NCBI GenBank assembly: GCA_019703815.1 | Contig: AP023053.1 | Span: 46,995 to 110,994 of the forward strand | DNA from: Thaumasiovibrio occultus | GTDB lineage: Bacteria > Pseudomonadota > Gammaproteobacteria > Enterobacterales > Vibrionaceae | DNA length: 64,000 bases | Reading direction: 5' to 3' | Shown here: positions 5,307 to 35,093 of the stretch, in pieces | Layout of the letters: every line of letters starts with the position of its first letter | Numbering within the stretch: the first letter of the stretch is position 1 | Program-made: the position numbers and the translations under genes | Notes under the pieces: model-generated | What the model was told of the DNA's origin: nothing | The model's input: the letters and a program-made list of their open reading frames with translations, nothing else | The model's database searches: none

Positions 5307-5462
5307 TTTCTTGAATAATGATCAGTGTTAGTTATCTCTTGCATAGCACGGTTCTGGTTGAGGTTACGCCATAACGGATTCGAAGCGAGTAGGGAAAAGT
5401 GGCTAAGCTGAAGTACCTAAGTTGAAATGACTGAGCCGAAATAACTAAGAAAGAGATAAAAA

Positions 5463-27290: not shown

Positions 27291-28877
27291 CTACTGACGT
27301 TTAATGTCCTTCCATGCCAAGCCAAATTTGGCCAAATATTTTTGCAATCGGCTCGAATCGTTCGATGAAGACTTACTCAGCCGACTGACGTTAAACAGCT
27401 CGCGCCCGGCGCTGGCGAGGGTATTCGCGCTCTGACATACCGACAACACATAGTTAAGTTGTTGCTGATCGAAATTATCGAGCTGGCTCGGATCTGCGAG
27501 ATGATCTGCCAGCACGAGCGAGCTTTCACGGGGCGCTGTCCATGAGGCTTTGAGGCGTTCAATTTCGGCGTGCACGTCATCCAGCGCGATGCGCGATTGA
27601 TCGGCGAGCGTGCATAAACGGGTGATCGCCGCGCCTAAATCACGAAAGTTACCGAGCCACAACGCCTCCGGTGATTGGGCGAAACGCAAAAAGGCGGTTT
27701 TGGCTTCTTTGTTAAACTGCACTCGGTGGTTGTTCTTTTCCATAAAGCGCGTCAGCTCAAACTCGACGTTGGCGGGAATATCTTCGCGGCGATCACGCAG
27801 CGCAGGCAGTTGGTAGTGCCATAGGTTGATCCGCGCGAGTAAGTCTTCACGAAACTGACCTTGCGCCACCATCTGTTTTAAATCGCGATTGGTGCCGGCG
27901 ATCAGCTGGAAATCACTGCATAACGCTTTATCGCTGCCGACAGGATAAAACTGTTTATTTTCGATGGCATGGAGCAACATGGCTTGCTCTTCAAGGCCCA
28001 ACTCGCCTACTTCATCCAAAAATAATACGCCGTGATGGGCGGTGAGTAAAAATCCGTCCCGCGCTTTTAATGCGCCAGTAAACGCCCCCTTGGTATGACC
28101 AAACAGCGCGGCCATCGCATTTTCGCCGCGCAGTGTGGCACAGTTGACCGCAACAAATTCCCCTTTGACCATGGCGCGGCGCTTTTTAAGCTGGAAGATC
28201 CGCGAAGCGAGTTGCGATTTTCCCGCGCCCGTCGCGCCTGTGAGCAAAATCGGCTCACACGAGCGGATCGCCACTTTTTCGATTTCACTGATCAAGCGGT
28301 TGAACGCCGCATTTTGGGTGTTGATCCCGCCTTTTAAAAACGCGCTACCTTCTTGGTGTTCGATATCAAAACGGTTAGCTAGTTGATCGTATTTCGAGAG
28401 ATCAAGATCGATGATTTGTACTTGCCCCACCGAAGGGCTAGCGGCATCTCTATCTGGGGAGGACTGGATCAAGCGACCCGGGAAATGACGGCTTTCAGTC
28501 AGCAGATACGAGCAGATCTGCACCACGTGGGTGCCAGTCGTAATATGAAACAGGAGATCTTGCTGTTCGGGATCAAACGATTGCTCTTTGCACCAGTCGA
28601 ACAACTTGGCATAGACTTCGCCAAAATCCCATGGATCGATAAAGTGAGTGGTTTCCAGTATCACTTTGGTGTCAGGCGAGACGCTGTAGATGTCTTCCGT
28701 GATTTGGTTGGCAAGTCGACTGTGGCGCTCATCATGCAACAAATACAGCTCATTTATTTGTAAGTCTTCTTGGCTACATAAACTGACATTGGGTCGCCAT
28801 CGCGCCCAACGATTGCCGCGTTTGCCGACAAAATCGAGTTGCGTACCGAGTAAACTGACCGCTACCGTTTTCTTCAT
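27291..28877 (-). CDS. rtcR: sigma-54-dependent transcriptional activator RtcR (N-terminal CARF-like domain, AAA+ sigma54-interaction domain)
   Basis: Walker A LLTGATGAGKS. GAFTGA motif (HTKGAFTGA). RtcR-specific N-terminal domain. 528 aa. Confidence 0.85.
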   Translation of the reverse strand: MKKTVAVSLLGTQLDFVGKRGNRWARWRPNVSLCSQEDLQINELYLLHDERHSRLANQITEDIYSVSPDTKVILETTHFIDPWDFGEVYAKLFDWCKEQSFDPEQQDLLFHITTGTHVVQICSYLLTESRHFPGRLIQSSPDRDAASPSVGQVQIIDLDLSKYDQLANRFDIEHQEGSAFLKGGINTQNAAFNRLISEIEKVAIRSCEPILLTGATGAGKSQLASRIFQLKKRRAMVKGEFVAVNCATLRGENAMAALFGHTKGAFTGALKARDGFLLTAHHGVLFLDEVGELGLEEQAMLLHAIENKQFYPVGSDKALCSDFQLIAGTNRDLKQMVAQGQFREDLLARINLWHYQLPALRDRREDIPANVEFELTRFMEKNNHRVQFNKEAKTAFLRFAQSPEALWLGNFRDLGAAITRLCTLADQSRIALDDVHAEIERLKASWTAPRESSLVLADHLADPSQLDNFDQQQLNYVLSVCQSANTLASAGRELFNVSRLSKSSSNDSSRLQKYLAKFGLAWKDIKRQ

Positions 28878-29257
28878 TTCATCCTATCCATGTAGATAAA
28901 ACCGTATCGGATGAGCTTAAAGTGGTTGCGGTATAAACACCAGCGAGCAGAGATGAAAAGGGTAGAAAACAAAGCCGTATCAGTGAGCTAAAGTCAAACT
29001 CAGGGAGATGTGTCGCAGAGAATGCGTGTTGTGCGATCTTATAATGGCCCGCAGTTGTCGGTGGCAAGGAATGTTATATGTGGAGACGAATGGGCTAGGC
29101 GATTTGGCGATGGAAAAAGGGATGAGATGGCAGAACGTTTCGTGACCATCCTTATTATCCGGCGGATTTGGTGCATGCCGCTGTTTAGCTATCATTTTTG
29201 CCAACAAAACGCCGCTAAGATCAGCGGCGTTTTTTATGATGCGAAGTTGGGCGGTAG

Positions 29258-29782
29258 TTATATCCAACCGGCCGCCACCAGTATTTTCAGACCGGCGGTT
29301 TTCATTTGCAGTAACAGCACGATAAAGCCTATAACCGTCGCGACCTGTCGCATCCGCTGCAATATTTTAGGTGAGCTTGCCATTACATTAAGAATAACAA
29401 AGCCAATGATCGCGAATATGCCTGCGGCAATCTTCGAGGTTTCTAATGACGGACCAAACAGACCGCTATCGTGAAGAGAAGGAATGGAAAGATAAGCGAT
29501 GACAGCGGGATAAGCGAAGCGCACCAGAATATCATCTAAGGTCAGCGCGCTAGATAGCGTTACGAGAAGGAAGACAAAACACAGAACAAGAGCTAAAGGT
29601 ACGATCAGAAACGAGAGTATGCCAACGTCGCCTTCTAGCAGGAGAACCGCAAGCCAGGTCGTGGTTGCGAATAGCATATAATTAAGAATACCCAAACCTA
29701 AGTGGGTGGTCGTAAGGAATTTGGCGGTGTCATCAGCTGCGCGACTCATTATGAAGATAGTCCTATTGGGAATGAAAGCCAT
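29258..29782 (-). CDS. small multi-TM membrane protein of unknown function
   Basis: 4-5 hydrophobic helices. Start uncertain: the ORF opens with TTG at 29815, and in-frame ATGs lie at 29782 and 29749. Confidence 0.5.
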   Translation of the reverse strand: MAFIPNRTIFIMSRAADDTAKFLTTTHLGLGILNYMLFATTTWLAVLLLEGDVGILSFLIVPLALVLCFVFLLVTLSSALTLDDILVRFAYPAVIAYLSIPSLHDSGLFGPSLETSKIAAGIFAIIGFVILNVMASSPKILQRMRQVATVIGFIVLLLQMKTAGLKILVAAGWI

Positions 29783-29895
29783 AGGATTGTAATGTCTTAT
29801 TGATTTTTCGCTCAATATATTTTGTGTGAATTTACTGTCAAATCAGAGATCTATGACACATATTATGCGCTTTAGTATCTCAACGCGGTGGCTGC

Positions 29896-30693
29896 TTAAA
29901 ATACGCACGGGCTACTGCCATGGAAAGCTTGGCCTGTGGCGGGGTGAGTAAACTGGATCTCGCTGGCATGAAGCATCAGATGTTGCGCGTTACATTGAGC
30001 GGCGAGGTTGATAGATTCGGCCGTGTTATAAAGATCGCAACCTAAAATGGGGTGGCCAAATTCCAAGCTATGAATCCGCAGTTGATGGGTACGACCGGTT
30101 ATTGGGGTGTATTGCACCAATGTTCTTTTAGGGTTATCCAAACGGCGTATCACTTGGTAATGACTGACCGCATTTTTCCCTTCGGTGTGGCAAATTTTCA
30201 CACGGGGAAAGAGCGCTTTATCTTTCGCAATGGGAGCAGAGATCTGGCCGCTGTCTGCTTCAACCCAGCCAGCAAGCATAGCGAGATAACGCTTTTGCAC
30301 CGTTCGGGCTTGAAACTGCTTATTGAGGCTTGTCGATGCCGCGCTGTTGAGCGCCACCACCATAATGCCGGACGTCCATAGATCTAATCGATGCGGCAAT
30401 TTGGCATTCTCAAAGGCTCCAGTTGCTTCTTTATTTTCAGCTGCTTCGTTCGTTTCGTTTGTCGAAACGCTATTTGGCGAATCTGCGCGACCTGTTGCGT
30501 TCGTACATTGGCCGCGCACCAGACGGTAATGAACGGAATCCCAATTGAGTGGGTTTTTACCCGATAGGCTGAGCAAACCGCTCGGTTTATTGATCAGCAA
30601 GATATCGTCATCTTGATACAGGATCTCGACCTCTGCCAGACACTCAGGTGCGACAAAATTATCAACGATTTCACTAGAAACTGAGTTAGACAT
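29896..30693 (-). CDS. RluA-family pseudouridine synthase with an internal low-complexity insertion
   Basis: ILYQDDDILLINKPSGLLS...HRLDLWTSGIMVVA (catalytic Asp in HRLD). QLRIH and HA motifs. About 45 aa Ser/Thr/Asn/Glu-rich insert before HRLD. Longer ORF to 30798 possible. Confidence 0.75.
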   Translation of the reverse strand: MSNSVSSEIVDNFVAPECLAEVEILYQDDDILLINKPSGLLSLSGKNPLNWDSVHYRLVRGQCTNATGRADSPNSVSTNETNEAAENKEATGAFENAKLPHRLDLWTSGIMVVALNSAASTSLNKQFQARTVQKRYLAMLAGWVEADSGQISAPIAKDKALFPRVKICHTEGKNAVSHYQVIRRLDNPKRTLVQYTPITGRTHQLRIHSLEFGHPILGCDLYNTAESINLAAQCNAQHLMLHASEIQFTHPATGQAFHGSSPCVF

Positions 30694-30821
30694 AAAAAGT
30701 GCTTGATGGAAAAAGATCAGATGGAATACAGAGGGCCGAATTATAATGCTGCCGGCACCGCGAGCTAGCACTTTTTTATCAATACTCGGATTGGTCATCG
30801 CAGAGCATGTCGGTATGTTTT

Positions 30822-30870
30822 GCTTCCTGCTTCCTGCTTCCTGCTTCCTGCTTCCTGCTTCCTGCTTCCT
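30822..30870. repeat. heptanucleotide tandem repeat (GCTTCCT)x7
   Basis: Seven perfect contiguous copies, seen directly. Lies in the leader/promoter region of the RluA-like gene. Confidence 0.95.
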
Positions 30871-31052
30871 TAACCCATTTTATTTCGTTCTACATCGCTA
30901 CTCACTTTGATTGTCTGGATAAGTGTGTATCTATATGGATAGCTTGTTTGTGTTTCAGGTTTTCAGGCCACAACCTGTGATAAAAGCATCTGAGTTTTTA
31001 ATTCATTTAAAATCAACTACATAAAAAATATTTCTCCTCACTTAGCACAGGT

Positions 31053-31068
31053 TGGCACGCGACTTGGA
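31053..31068 (+). promoter_or_regulatory. candidate sigma-54 (-24/-12) promoter
   Basis: TGGCACG-CGAC-TTGGA: perfect -24 element and spacing, -12 element with TTGG instead of TTGC. Sits about 130 nt upstream of the tRNA-like element on the rtcBA strand. RtcR is a sigma54 activator. Confidence 0.45.
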
Positions 31069-31186
31069 ATAACTCAGTCGTGATTGATGGTGACTCTGGG
31101 TTCACCACGGTGCGCTAAGCGATGCGACTGCGTATGCCGTCTGTCACACGGTAAAGCCCTTTCACGGCTTGGGTTCAACTCCCAAA

Positions 31187-31259
31187 CATAAGATAGCTCA
31201 ATAGGTAGAGCGCCAAACGGCAACGTTGGATGTCGCGGGTTCGATTCCCGCTCTTAATG
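31187..31259 (+). ncRNA. tRNA-like element (degenerate tRNA or Y-RNA/YrlA-like RNA)
   Basis: Perfect D-arm GCTC-AATAGGTA-GAGC. Perfect T-arm GCGGG-TTCGATT-CCCGC. 5-nt variable loop ATGTC. Anticodon arm with 4 bp plus mismatch and loop CGGCAAC (G at position 33). Acceptor stem pairs only 5 of 7. No CCA. Confidence 0.5.
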
Positions 31260-31421
31260 ACCATATATGTGCAACACGCCAACAACGTGAGTTGCCAATG
31301 GATGAACAGCGCCCCTGATTTAGGGGAAGTGGCAAGCATACGCTCCCTGCTTCCTACACCTTAGACGGCCCTGCTCACTACGCAATTTTACTTTGTTGGT
31401 TATCAACACGAGGAAGTGACG

Positions 31422-32579
31422 ATGAAAAAATATCAAAAAAATATCACGGTAACGGAAGGCCAACGCGCGTTGCTATTTAAAAACGAACAATTTCAAACAG
31501 TGTTGCCAGTCGGGCAGCACAAATTTTGGGACTTTTCCGATAAGGTGCGGTTTAAGCTGATCAGCCTCAATACGGTTTTTGTGACCGATGCAGATGTGAT
31601 CCGCTTATACCGCGAAGGGGCACTGCAAGACGACATCTTGCACTGGAAACTGTCGCCAACCGAAACCGGTTTGCTCTATTTCAACGATGTGTTGCTGGGG
31701 ATTGTCGCGCCGAACGAGCACGTTTATGTCTGGCAAGCGGCGGGGGAATATCGCTTAGAAAAAGTCGACTTAGAGAGTGATGTTGAAGTAAAAGGCGCAA
31801 TGCTGCGCGATATTGAACGCTCGAATAAGAACACCGCGAGCAAGTTGATCCACAGTGCCAGCACTCATGCGATCCAACCGGTGAAATCTATCCGTGTGGA
31901 TAAACAACAAGTAGCGTTGCTGTTCTTTAACGGTCGTTATCAAACCGCATTGCAACCGGGCAATTACGGTTACTGGCAGTTTATGCACGATATTGATGTC
32001 CGCCAATACGATTTGCGTACTCGGACGTTTGAGGTCACCGGCCAAGAGATCTTAAGCAAAGATCGGGTGAGCCTGCGGATCAACCTGAGCGCTAACATTC
32101 GCATTAGCGATCCCATGTTGGCTGCGACCACGGTGGAGAGTGTGGATGATTTCATCTACCAGCGTTTGCAGCTGGCTTTGCGTGAAGCGGTCGGCACCAA
32201 AACCTTGGATGATATCTTGCAAGACAAGCTCTACATCAACCACACCGTGCGCGAGTTGGTAGCGGAGCAGTTGGCACGTGTTGGCGTGGTGCTAGAAAGT
32301 GTCGGGGTGAAAGACATCATCTTGCCGGGCGAAATGAAAGCGATTTTGAATCAGGTGGTGGAAGCGCAGAAAGCCGCAGAAGCGAACGTGATCAAGCGCC
32401 GTGAAGAAACCGCTGCCACCCGCAGCTTGCACAATACCGCCAAAGTGATGGAGAACAACCCGACGCTAATGCGCTTGAAAGAGTTGGAAGCGCTAGAGAA
32501 GGTGTCGGAGAAGATCAGCAACTTGACGGTGTATGGCGGCTTGGAAGGCTTGATGCAAGGTGTGGTAAAGCTGACTTAA
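31422..32579 (+). CDS. cytosolic SPFH/band-7 (stomatin/slipin-like) domain protein
   Basis: C-terminal two thirds match SPFH core and coiled-coil (ILPGEMKAILNQVVEAQKAAEANVIKRREETAA). No TM segment. N-terminal beta-rich domain of about 150 aa. GAGGAAG SD. Confidence 0.75.
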   Translation: MKKYQKNITVTEGQRALLFKNEQFQTVLPVGQHKFWDFSDKVRFKLISLNTVFVTDADVIRLYREGALQDDILHWKLSPTETGLLYFNDVLLGIVAPNEHVYVWQAAGEYRLEKVDLESDVEVKGAMLRDIERSNKNTASKLIHSASTHAIQPVKSIRVDKQQVALLFFNGRYQTALQPGNYGYWQFMHDIDVRQYDLRTRTFEVTGQEILSKDRVSLRINLSANIRISDPMLAATTVESVDDFIYQRLQLALREAVGTKTLDDILQDKLYINHTVRELVAEQLARVGVVLESVGVKDIILPGEMKAILNQVVEAQKAAEANVIKRREETAATRSLHNTAKVMENNPTLMRLKELEALEKVSEKISNLTVYGGLEGLMQGVVKLT

Positions 32580-32733
32580 TCGGTCTAAAAACCTAGCGGT
32601 AATAAACCTAGCGGTAAGAAACGCAGAGCAAATAAACCGAAAGCAAATCAACTTGAAGCAAGAGAGCCGCCTGGTAGGTTTAGGCGAGGCGGCTCAGCTA
32701 TCCAAAATAGAATCAAAAATGAAGGAGCATAGT

Positions 32734-33960
32734 ATGTGTCAGAAATTTAATCTTTATGAATCAGAAGGCAAGGCCGCCATCAAAGCATGGACCCAAGGGG
32801 TGCCTTTTGAAGACGAGGCGCGTGCCCAGCTTGATAACATTGCCGCGATGCCAATTATTCACTCCCATATTGCGGTGATGCCGGATGTGCATTTAGGCAA
32901 AGGGGCGACGATTGGTAGCGTTATTCCATCGGTGGATGCGGTGATCCCCGCTGCTGTCGGGGTCGATATTGGTTGCGGTATGGTAGCGGCGAAAACCAGC
33001 CTGCGCGCGAAAGATCTGCCGGATAACTTGCGCGGTGTGCGCTCGGCGTTTGAAGCGGCGGTGCCGCACGGACGAACGGTGTCGCGCCACCACAAGCGTG
33101 ATAAAGGCGCGTGGGGAAATATTCCCGCGTTAGTGGCGCAGGAGTGGCTAACACTGCAAGCGCGTTTTGAACGCATTTGTGAAAAACACCCAACGATCAA
33201 AAAGTCCAACAACGTCAACCATTTGGGTACCATGGGAACCGGCAACCATTTTCTTGAGCTGTGTATTGATGAGAACGATGCAGTGTGGATCATGCTTCAT
33301 TCCGGTAGCCGCGGCGTGGGGAATTTGATTGGCACCTACTTTATAGAGCTGGCCAAAAAAGAGATGGAGCGTCATCAAATTCAGTTACCGGATGTGAATT
33401 TGGCCTACCTAAAAGAAGGTAGCGAGTATTTTGATGACTACGTTGAAGCGGTGGAGTGGGCGCAAGATTTTGCCCGTAAAAACCGCGAGATCATGATGCT
33501 TAATGCGATTGCCGCGCTGCGTACTGCGCTTGGGGTGAATTTCAGTGCCAGCGAAATGGCGGTGAACTGCCACCATAACTACATTTCCCGCGAGCATCAC
33601 TTTGGTAAGGACTGTTATGTCACCCGTAAAGGGGCGGTGCGCGCGCAGCAGGGTGAGATGGGGATCATTCCAAGCAACATGGGAGAGCGTTCGTTTATCG
33701 TGCGTGGCTTGGGAAATCCTGACAGCTTTAACAGTTGCAGCCACGGTGCGGGGCGTGTGATGTCGCGAACCAAAGCCAAAAAGGTCTACACCATCAAAGA
33801 TCAAGAAGCGATGACCCAAGGGGTCGAGTGCCGCAAAGACAAAGAGGTGATTGATGAGATCCCTGCGGCATACAAAAACATCGACGATGTGATGGCGGCG
33901 CAAAGCGATTTAGTGGAAGTGGTGCATACCCTAAAACAAGTGGTGTGTGTGAAAGGCTAA
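32734..33960 (+). CDS. rtcB: RNA-splicing ligase RtcB
   Basis: AAGGAG SD before ATG 32734. Near-identical blocks to RtcB (HIAVMPDVHLGKG, GTGNHFLE, HSGSRG, CHHNY, SHGAGR). Confidence 0.9.
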   Translation: MCQKFNLYESEGKAAIKAWTQGVPFEDEARAQLDNIAAMPIIHSHIAVMPDVHLGKGATIGSVIPSVDAVIPAAVGVDIGCGMVAAKTSLRAKDLPDNLRGVRSAFEAAVPHGRTVSRHHKRDKGAWGNIPALVAQEWLTLQARFERICEKHPTIKKSNNVNHLGTMGTGNHFLELCIDENDAVWIMLHSGSRGVGNLIGTYFIELAKKEMERHQIQLPDVNLAYLKEGSEYFDDYVEAVEWAQDFARKNREIMMLNAIAALRTALGVNFSASEMAVNCHHNYISREHHFGKDCYVTRKGAVRAQQGEMGIIPSNMGERSFIVRGLGNPDSFNSCSHGAGRVMSRTKAKKVYTIKDQEAMTQGVECRKDKEVIDEIPAAYKNIDDVMAAQSDLVEVVHTLKQVVCVKG

Positions 33961-34034
33961 AACAAAACAGCCAGACGCAAAAAAACAGTTACCAAAAGCC
34001 AGATATAAAAAAACAGCGAATAGGAAAGCAACGG

Positions 34035-35093
34035 ATGCGATATATCCAAATCGACGGCAGCATGGGCGAAGGCGGCGGGCAGGTACTGCGTACGTCGTTA
34101 ACGTTATCGATGCTGTATCAAATGCCGATTGAAATTAGCAATATCCGCGCAGGACGCAATAAGCCGGGCCTGCTGCGCCAGCACTTAACGTGCGTGTTGG
34201 CGGCGGCAGAGATTTCATCTGCGCAGGTGGAAGGCGCCGAGCTTGGCGCTACTCGGTTAAGGTTTGCGCCGGGCAGCGTCAAAGCGGGGGAGTATCACTT
34301 TGCGGTGGGCTCGGCAGGCAGCACCGCATTGGTATGCCAAACGGTTTTACTGCCATTAGCGCTTACCGGGCAAGGTTCGCGCGTAATCTTCGAAGGTGGC
34401 ACCCACAATATGGCAGCCCCTTCGTTAACCTTTTTAACACAGAGCTTTCTGCCGCTACTGGCACAGCAAGGGTTGAACACTAAGGTCACGCTTGATCGGG
34501 TGGGGTTTTACCCAGCGGGTGGCGGGCGTTGGCAGTTAGATATCGATGGTGTCGCATCACTCGCGCCGCTGCGTGTTGCGCCTGAGAAAGAAACCGAAAA
34601 TTCTACGCTGACGGCTGTTGCGATGATCAGCAAGTTGGCAAACAAGATAGGTGAGCGGGAAATTACTCAGCTAGAGAAATCCCTGCGCCGCTCCCCGCTT
34701 GGTGATGTGAACGTTAGCGGACGGGTTGAGTCCGTTGAGTCTATCGGGCCGGGTAACATGTTATTGCTGACAGCAAAGAGCTACCACCATGCGCATGTCT
34801 TTGAAATGGCGGGAAGTTACGGCGTAAAAGCGGAAGCAGTTGCCAAGCGAGTTGCGGGGCGTTATTGCGAGTTTTATGAAGCAGAGGCAGAGGTTGAACA
34901 TTACTTGGCCGATCAACTATTGCTGCCTTTGCTGGTGGGCGGCGCTGGCGCGTTTATCACTTCTGTGCCGAGTGGCCATTTGCAAACCAATGTGGCGCTC
35001 ATTCGCCAACTGACCGGAAAACCGCTGACACTAACACCACATGGTGAAAGCCGCTTCGGCGCACCACGCTGGCAGGTGGCGCTCAGTCGTTAG
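34035..35093 (+). CDS. rtcA: RNA 3'-terminal phosphate cyclase RtcA
   Basis: IDGSMGEGGGQVLRTSLTLS and IRAGRNKPGLLRQHL blocks. Catalytic His region. AGGAAA SD. Confidence 0.85.
   Translation: MRYIQIDGSMGEGGGQVLRTSLTLSMLYQMPIEISNIRAGRNKPGLLRQHLTCVLAAAEISSAQVEGAELGATRLRFAPGSVKAGEYHFAVGSAGSTALVCQTVLLPLALTGQGSRVIFEGGTHNMAAPSLTFLTQSFLPLLAQQGLNTKVTLDRVGFYPAGGGRWQLDIDGVASLAPLRVAPEKETENSTLTAVAMISKLANKIGEREITQLEKSLRRSPLGDVNVSGRVESVESIGPGNMLLLTAKSYHHAHVFEMAGSYGVKAEAVAKRVAGRYCEFYEAEAEVEHYLADQLLLPLLVGGAGAFITSVPSGHLQTNVALIRQLTGKPLTLTPHGESRFGAPRWQVALSR

Follow-up and report, generated by a model that had tools for sequence, protein, structure and literature searches.

The 64,000-nucleotide stretch of the Thaumasiovibrio occultus genome analysed here (hereafter the window) carries, ahead of genes encoding an SPFH/Band-7 protein, the RNA ligase RtcB and the RNA 3'-phosphate cyclase RtcA, a sequence that folds as a tRNA cloverleaf and departs in several ways from a functional tRNA. 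What is this element, and what would a tRNA-like fold do in front of these genes? The comparative sequence data confirm that it is a real, conserved and non-decoding tRNA-shaped RNA, located upstream of SPFH genes in RtcB operons. From its sequence and its neighbourhood, we assign it to b7a-tRNA (the tRNA 'associated with band-7'), a class that is already known, and as a class it is therefore not a new observation. We consider it probable that the element is a b7a-type mimic of the tRNA shape, carried in a leader of about 280 nucleotides (nt) and likely to act as an RNA partner or a decoy for the SPFH-RtcB system.

An earlier note, made from the window sequence, had described a degenerate cloverleaf at 31187-31259. 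The Rfam tRNA model (RF00005, gathering score 29 bits) matched positions 31189-31256 of the forward strand with 44.7 bits (E = 2.9e-6 for the whole 64 kb window) and was the sole Rfam family at threshold in the window. With default settings ARAGORN called zero tRNA in the whole window, and with an 80% threshold it recovered the cloverleaf at 31187-31259 in the same drawing as the earlier note, with a perfect D-arm (GCTC/AATAGGTA/GAGC), a perfect T-arm (GCGGG/TTCGATT/CCCGC), a variable loop of 5 nt and the anticodon GCA. The defects listed in the earlier note were also found: only 5 of the 7 acceptor pairs can form (C1-T72 and A2-A71 fail), the base of the anticodon stem carries an A31.G39 mismatch, and a G occupies position 33, where tRNAs have an invariant U. 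Its statement that no CCA is encoded is right for the proper register only, as the discriminator G73 (31259) is followed by ACCA, which places a CCA at 31261-31263, one base out of register. All the bases of the tertiary core can be read from the sequence (U8, A14, G18, G19, A21, G26/A44, G46, T54, T55, C56 and A58). The other matches in an Rfam E-value scan of 30850-31450 were noise: the tRNA-like element of Tymovirus scored 14 bits, Plastid-ycf2 lay antisense to the tRNA, and the remainder were snoRNAs. The cloverleaf is also the minimum-free-energy fold of the single sequence (-21.6 kcal/mol), with a z-score of -1.66 which is not significant alone, and the case for the cloverleaf therefore rests on comparative data.

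These data come from an alignment of SPFH homologues that led to 80 loci (Gamma- and Betaproteobacteria, one Myxococcota and one Eisenbacteria), to which 4 more close loci were added. Nearly all of the 80 loci contain 1-3 T-loop motifs upstream of the SPFH gene, with a spacing of about 70 nt. Of 81 upstream regions, ARAGORN at an 85% threshold assigned a tRNA-like element to 68, with 1-3 'tRNAs' per region, and the tandem modules touch each other or share a few bases. Only 4 of the loci searched gave no match upstream of SPFH with a family model (R1); this model scored 65.6 bits on 31187-31259, a sequence that is itself in its training set, and does not enter into the Rfam, ARAGORN and covariation results. 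The modules always share strand and transcription unit with the SPFH gene and lie directly upstream of it, either in the leader or between rtcA and SPFH. RtcB is present in 66 of the 84 related loci, and one clade shows the order rtcR-rtcB-rtcA-(RNA)-SPFH, in which the RNA is directly upstream of SPFH and not of rtcB. In the window and its roughly 80 relatives, the RNA thus travels with the SPFH gene rather than with rtcB. Downstream of SPFH, the loci without RtcB have no common partner gene (an AAA ATPase, an elongation factor G (EF-G) paralogue and unrelated genes were found).

In an alignment of 82 modules, the D-arm (UAGCUCA..GGUAGAGC) and the T-loop (GGUUCRAnUCC) are near-invariant, as are the tertiary-core bases. 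All four helices covary, including the D- and T-arms for which the earlier note had called for such a check, with compensatory double changes in 19 of 21 pairs; paired cells reach 90.6%, versus 65.8% in shuffles and 34-45% with partners slid, and the covariation score is 0.644 versus 0.183 in shuffles. The decoding parts are not kept in this way. The anticodon loop has a length other than 7 nt in 31 of the 82 modules (range 4-13 nt across the family), U33 is present in only 33 of the 51 seven-nucleotide loops, 24 different 'anticodon' triplets occur, and an in-register CCA is encoded in only 13 of the 82 modules. The anticodons called by ARAGORN are very varied and often senseless (stop, 2- and 4-nt 'anticodons', Ser, Lys, Leu, Cys). 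Photobacterium japonica, whose SPFH protein is 89% identical, is the closest relative, and its module has AAT and G33 where the window has GCA. Selection keeps the tRNA body (D-arm/T-loop elbow, tertiary core and four helices), whereas anticodon, U33, loop size and CCA end are free to change, which argues that the RNA works via its three-dimensional shape and not by decoding. Relatives show no canonical tRNA-Cys, the outcome by which the earlier note would have been refuted, and the 'anticodon' loop varies in sequence and length while the D-arm, T-loop and core are kept, which makes the element a tRNA-shape mimic and not a tRNA-Cys. The word 'degenerate' in that note holds, the window copy being non-canonical and more degenerate than most family copies, but most of the 'defects' (free anticodon loop, non-U33, no in-register CCA and imperfect acceptor stem) are normal in the family and do not signal decay.

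The b7a-tRNA class was predicted by Burroughs and Aravind in 2016 (Nucleic Acids Res 44:8525), according to the summary given by Wang et al. (2018, bioRxiv 10.1101/312249). In that summary, b7a-tRNAs are strongly tRNA-like, lie beside a Band-7/SPFH gene and RtcB and have no Ro gene; a YrlA-like accessory function in RNA ligation, maybe redundant with YrlA, is proposed for them. The window element resembles this description in its SPFH adjacency (a Band_7 gene starts 163 nt downstream of the cloverleaf, and the same adjacency exists in about 80 homologous loci), in its RtcB neighbourhood (rtcB and rtcA downstream, rtcR upstream) and in its likeness to tRNA (the Rfam score, the ARAGORN cloverleaf and the four covarying helices). 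It differs from most b7a-tRNAs by the greater degeneracy of its cloverleaf (acceptor stem, A.G mismatch, G33 and the negative default ARAGORN) and by a T-arm mini-module that stands in place of a second full module. With canonical tRNA (RF00005), the element shares the cloverleaf, the D/T elbow, the tertiary core, the 5-nt variable loop and a score above gathering, whereas its anticodon is unconserved, its acceptor is weak, G33 replaces U33, no CCA is in register, and it is embedded in an mRNA leader under a sigma-54-type promoter. A tRNA fold inside a longer transcript, recognised by tRNA-handling enzymes, is also the case of mascRNA (MALAT1), of plant-virus 3' tRNA-like structures and of the tRNA-like domain of tmRNA, which differ from the element in context and phylogeny. 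For annotation, such elements should be called neither tRNA genes nor tRNA pseudogenes.

The second T-arm-like hairpin that the earlier note had placed immediately upstream is present at 31169-31185 (TTGGG-TTCAACT-CCCAA), but it is not isolated. It belongs to a mini-module composed of GGUAAA, a short hairpin (AGCC-CTTTCAC-GGCT, 31155-31169) and the T-arm, which recurs in loci of distant lineages, mostly after a full module in the distant-clade loci. The T-arm hairpin matches the T-arm part of model R1 (13.8 bits) and is identical in P. japonica. The stems of the short hairpin differ between loci yet compensate (sum 65 versus 29 +/- 7.5 in shuffles), and these mini-modules are without any acceptor stem. 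Photobacterium GJ3 and Vibrio neptunius carry two full modules; set against these, the first module of the window and of P. japonica seems to be missing its 5' two-fifths. We infer that the mini-module is a minimal mimic of the tRNA elbow, made of a D-loop-like GG and a T-loop.

Both modules are parts of a leader of about 280 nt in which a three-way junction, the mini 'elbow' module, the tRNA-like module and a 3' hairpin follow one another (Table 1). In the junction, the stem P1 pairs 31080-31084 with 31143-31147, the hairpin H1 (GGTGA/TCACC, 31089-31106) has a loop that usually starts with UUC and reads CUCUGGGU in the window, and the helix P2 (31109-31138) has a GG..CC base and a 2-nt UG bulge (GGUGCGC...GCGUAUGCC). 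Across the family, the GG..CC base of P2 is invariant, its 2-nt bulge reads UR and its extension covaries. RNAalifold found compensatory changes in 8 of the 14 junction pairs (19 sequences). For P1, a free test of the longest helix anywhere was uninformative in this AT-rich sequence, and it gave way to a fixed-register test, with 118 versus 74 +/- 6 in shuffles, which reached 92 at most. Of 83 upstream regions, 55 contain the P2 motif, versus 2/83 and 1/83 in controls, and it is also present in the clade with the intergenic RNA (rtcA-(RNA)-SPFH). At the other end of the leader, 25 distinct homologous 3' hairpins lie 88-139 nt upstream of the SPFH start, with 163 contiguous stem pairs versus 26 +/- 6 in shuffles (19 distinct stems) and a loop, CAAGC-NGGAN-GCUCC, that is kept in Alteromonadales and Vibrionales. 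The minimum-free-energy fold of the window hairpin is -15.7 kcal/mol (z = -2.25), and no T run follows it. Scanning 30850-31450 with Rfam 15 gave no family for the three-way junction or the 3' hairpin. The composite architecture of the leader, together with the relation of its modules to YrlA discussed below, may be new relative to the 2016 description of b7a-tRNA.

Table 1. Features of the SPFH-rtcBA locus and its leader in the window (positions counted from the first nucleotide of the window)
Feature	Position	Strand	Evidence and remarks
rtcR, sigma-54-dependent activator with CARF-type RtcR domain	27291..28877	-	Pfam RtcR + Sigma54_activat
Sigma-54-type promoter TGGCAC-N5-TTGG	31053..31068	+	pattern TGGCACN5TTG at 31053-31066; putative activity
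5' three-way junction	31077..31148	+	leader alignment, RNAalifold, P1 and P2 tests
Mini-module: CGGUAAAG + short hairpin + T-arm hairpin	31149..31186	+	kept in 17 loci
tRNA-like module	31187..31259	+	full cloverleaf, degenerate acceptor stem, G33, 'anticodon' GCA; b7a-tRNA class
3' hairpin	31324..31355	+	stem GGGAAGUGG/CUGCUUCCU; loop CAAGC-N-GCUCC, here CAAGCAUACGCUCC
SPFH/Band-7 ('slipin') gene	31416..32579	+	Pfam Band_7 E = 6e-31; likely ATG 31422
rtcB, RNA ligase gene	32653..33960	+	Pfam RtcB E = 6e-125
rtcA, RNA 3'-phosphate cyclase gene	33945..35093	+	Pfam RTC + RTC_insert

The transcript is predicted to start near 31077-31079. At least 33 related loci have the same sigma-54-type motif on their + strand, at a distance of 400-550 nt upstream from SPFH and always just ahead of the 5' RNA domain. 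A scan of the leader for sigma-70 promoters and intrinsic terminators found none, including no terminator between the RNA and the SPFH gene. The conserved position of the motif, together with this negative scan, indicates that the tRNA-like element is most likely part of an RtcR-dependent transcript with SPFH-rtcB-rtcA.

Hughes et al. (2020, PMC7790460) showed that damaged tRNAs activate RtcR, and suggested that YrlA's tRNA-like domain could inhibit an anticodon nuclease. On the mechanism that we favour, RNA damage would activate RtcR and the RNA would be made in step with the SPFH, RtcB and RtcA proteins; tRNA-processing enzymes may then release the tRNA-like RNA from the leader, and the free RNA would act as the partner of a soluble, cage-type SPFH protein. 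As a scaffold or cofactor, it could bring together RtcB and tRNA-like substrates that are damaged; alternatively, it could be a non-cleavable tRNA decoy. The pair formed by this RNA and SPFH would then be the counterpart of YrlA and Ro in rsr-yrlBA-rtcBA operons. Selection on the tRNA body, the linkage to SPFH and the larger conserved leader narrow the hypotheses to recognition of the RNA's shape, be it by the SPFH protein, by RtcB or by enzymes that process tRNA, in repair operons (RtcB/RtcA) that are widespread in bacteria and stress-induced.

The SPFH protein, 100% identical to the slipin of Thaumasiovibrio occultus, was modelled with a mean predicted local distance difference test (pLDDT) of 81; besides the SPFH domain, the model has a beta-rich domain at the N terminus and a long helix, and it has no transmembrane segment. 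The top fold matches of the model are the stomatin, HflK/C and prohibitin rings. The major vault protein aligns with it over about 460-480 columns and gave the best query template modelling (TM) scores; its beta repeats, SPFH-like shoulder and long helix align with most of the length of the model, as a resemblance only. Vault particles, which contain vault RNA and the TROVE domain of TEP1, would thus offer an analogy for an SPFH cage, both pairing a protein with a small structured RNA. Vault RNA has no sequence homology with the tRNA-like element, and this is analogy and not membership. An alternation of TROVE or SPFH proteins is reportedly a theme of the 2016 work of Burroughs and Aravind. 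A tblastn search of a phage collection with the SPFH protein gave no match.

The earlier note had proposed a possible Y-RNA/YrlA analogue, and had called for a search with the YrlA model. This comparison holds for the position of an accessory RNA in an RtcB operon and for the YrlA-like function proposed in the literature for the class, but not for family membership. The idea of a true YrlA or other Y RNA, whose Ro partner would be encoded elsewhere in the genome, draws on a weak match of the YrlA model (RF02553) at 31148-31239 (19.5 bits, E = 0.19, gathering score 69), in which the upstream T-arm and then the D-arm are aligned in the permuted order typical of YrlA, with mismatches and gaps in the outer stems. 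It also draws on V. neptunius (L083 3513-3610), where the junction between tandem modules A and B matches the same model as a permuted tRNA (40.4 bits, E ~1e-7), the 3' anticodon-stem strand of A being able to pair with the 5' anticodon-stem strand of B; 13 authentic tandem tRNAs, used as a control array, gave no YrlA match. The similarity is thus real, and perhaps reflects an evolutionary link between tandem b7a modules and YrlA, but both scores are far under the gathering score, which speaks against membership, and comparison with relatives indicates that the T-then-D order at 31169-31211 stems from two adjacent modules. The element shares with YrlA the D-arm and T-arm consensus and the place of an accessory tRNA-mimicking RNA in an RtcR/sigma-54-controlled RtcB operon, whereas its cloverleaf order is normal and not permuted, it has no long 5'/3' Ro-binding stem, and its partner gene, constant over about 80 loci, is SPFH instead of Ro60/Rsr. 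In agreement with the earlier note, no TROVE/Ro domain was found by Pfam in the operon and flanking open reading frames (ORFs) or in 9 of the 19 window ORFs of at least 330 amino acids (aa), a scan that took in all the 440-650 aa ORFs but neither the four ORFs of about 800 aa nor four others of 347-385 aa. We therefore hold a true YrlA to be very improbable. We give equally little credence to a functional, unusual tRNA-Cys(GCA) or other decoding tRNA: the Rfam score and the intact tertiary core would fit it, and a few distant family members with a 7-bp acceptor, an in-register CCA and a CAT anticodon may be real tRNAs, but default ARAGORN is negative, the window copy has the acceptor, mismatch, position 33 and CCA defects described above, the triplet is AAT in P. 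japonica, and the family loops of 4-13 nt sometimes read as stop codons. In addition, its discriminator is a G, while E. coli tRNA-Cys requires U73. The least credible account, which the comparative data refute, would make the element a tRNA pseudogene in decay, a remnant of the attachment site of a mobile element, or a match by chance, to which the degenerate acceptor stem, the truncated look of the adjoining module relative to loci L082 and L083 and a lineage-specific insertion of 2 kb close by could be related; position and orientation are kept across Gamma- and Betaproteobacteria, one Myxococcota and one Eisenbacteria locus, the compensatory covariation is strong, the window match has an E-value of 2.9e-6, and the 'truncated' unit is itself kept in 17 loci.

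A purely cis-acting leader, without free RNA, is a more serious alternative, although we judge it unlikely. The modules would then be RNase P/RNase Z 'punctuation' or a protein-binding operator for the SPFH-rtcBA mRNA, and would set its 5' end, stability or translation, for example by autoregulation through the SPFH protein. Their constant strand, transcription unit and position directly upstream of SPFH would agree with this, as would tandem modules that abut or slightly overlap like a polycistronic tRNA precursor, the conservation of the acceptor and T-arm recognised by RNase P while the anticodon is free, and a hairpin, conserved and lying about 90 nt ahead of the start codon, that could cap a processed mRNA. 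However, RNase P requires only an acceptor/T-arm minihelix, and the near-invariance of the D-arm sequence and of the whole tertiary core goes beyond this need; the conserved mini-modules have no acceptor stem, and some loci have further tRNA-like matches downstream of SPFH. This alternative and the tRNA-shape mimic are compatible, not exclusive. Several points weigh against the latter: sequence alone does not distinguish a trans-acting RNA from a purely cis-acting leader; with 5/7 acceptor pairs and an A.G mismatch, this copy could be partly decayed; and the R1 scores are circular because R1 was trained on the same sequences. Moreover, the definition of the class is second-hand, taken from the summary of Wang et al. 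(2018, bioRxiv 10.1101/312249), where b7a-tRNAs are 'not validated experimentally' as of 2018, and our literature search found no b7a-tRNA paper after that preprint, while a 2023 RtcB review is silent on the class. More tentatively, and as a possibility that we do not regard as the likelier outcome, the element may not stand alone but be a domain within a larger, composite RNA of about 280 nt associated with SPFH and formed by the three-way junction (GG..CC helix, UR bulge), 1-3 tRNA-like or 'elbow-only' modules and the hairpin with the loop CAAGC-NGGAN-GCUCC. Together with a soluble, vault-like cage of SPFH protein, this RNA would form an inducible particle for RNA repair, and YrlA-type Y RNAs would be derived from a junction between two tandem modules of this kind.

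Between the tRNA-like module and the 3' hairpin, the leader contains a further hairpin (GCAAC...GTTGC) and a CCAATGG motif (31272-31296); the hairpin is shared with P. japonica, and CCAATG is found in 4 of 5 aligned leaders. Two other candidates were rejected: a pairing of GCGTATGC in the 5' segment with GCATACGC in the loop of the 3' hairpin, which relatives do not keep, and a likeness of 31077-31094 to the 3' end of 16S rRNA, which is unconserved.

In the window, rtcR is about 2.2 kb from the SPFH promoter, whereas in relatives rtcR and the SPFH gene diverge directly and are separated by about 550 nt. The greater distance here is due to an insertion, the stretch of about 2 kb between rtcR and the promoter being lineage-specific. 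Besides two ORFs without family match, positions 28880-30850 contain a minus-strand gene (29896-30798) for a pseudouridine synthase of the RluA family, which none of the relatives has. Between the start of this divergent gene and the sigma-54 promoter lies a perfect tandem repeat of the heptamer TGCTTCC (30821-30870, 7.1 copies), whose unit is also the 3' strand (CTGCTTCC) of the 3' leader hairpin of the window. This repeat could be a spacer made variable by slipped-strand events, or chance.

Other loci display additional features. Further tRNA-like matches stand just downstream of SPFH in L053 (5192-5264) and L049 (5450-5522), with weaker ones in L070, L071, L073, L078 and L068 (at about 5330-5450). 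In eight betaproteobacterial and other metagenome-assembled genome loci (L043, L055, L062, L060, L037, L045, L074 and L076), arrays of 5-14 apparently normal tRNA genes are directly upstream of the SPFH-associated modules, and in L060 an EF-G paralogue is downstream of the SPFH gene; the arrays and the paralogue look like a translation-backup island. The V. neptunius locus (L083/L084) constitutes a dense RNA-repair island in which RlaP nucleotidyltransferase, AAA_33 kinase-like, RNA_ligase-family and RF-1-domain proteins and a second RtcB are encoded beside SPFH-RtcB. In E. coli (L085 and L086), a sigma-54-type promoter, a leader resembling the junction and a single T-arm (UGGGUUCGAUUCCCA) come before the slipin gene, with no full tRNA-like module, and the Prokaryotic Genome Annotation Pipeline (PGAP) annotates no RNA in this leader. 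This slipin gene (41% identical), with a nucleotidyltransferase gene after it and, in L086, a zeta-toxin-family gene beside the two, occupies the yjbD-lysC interval in about 1629 of 5426 complete genomes (~30%), and E. coli isolates with the slipin locus could serve as an experimental system.

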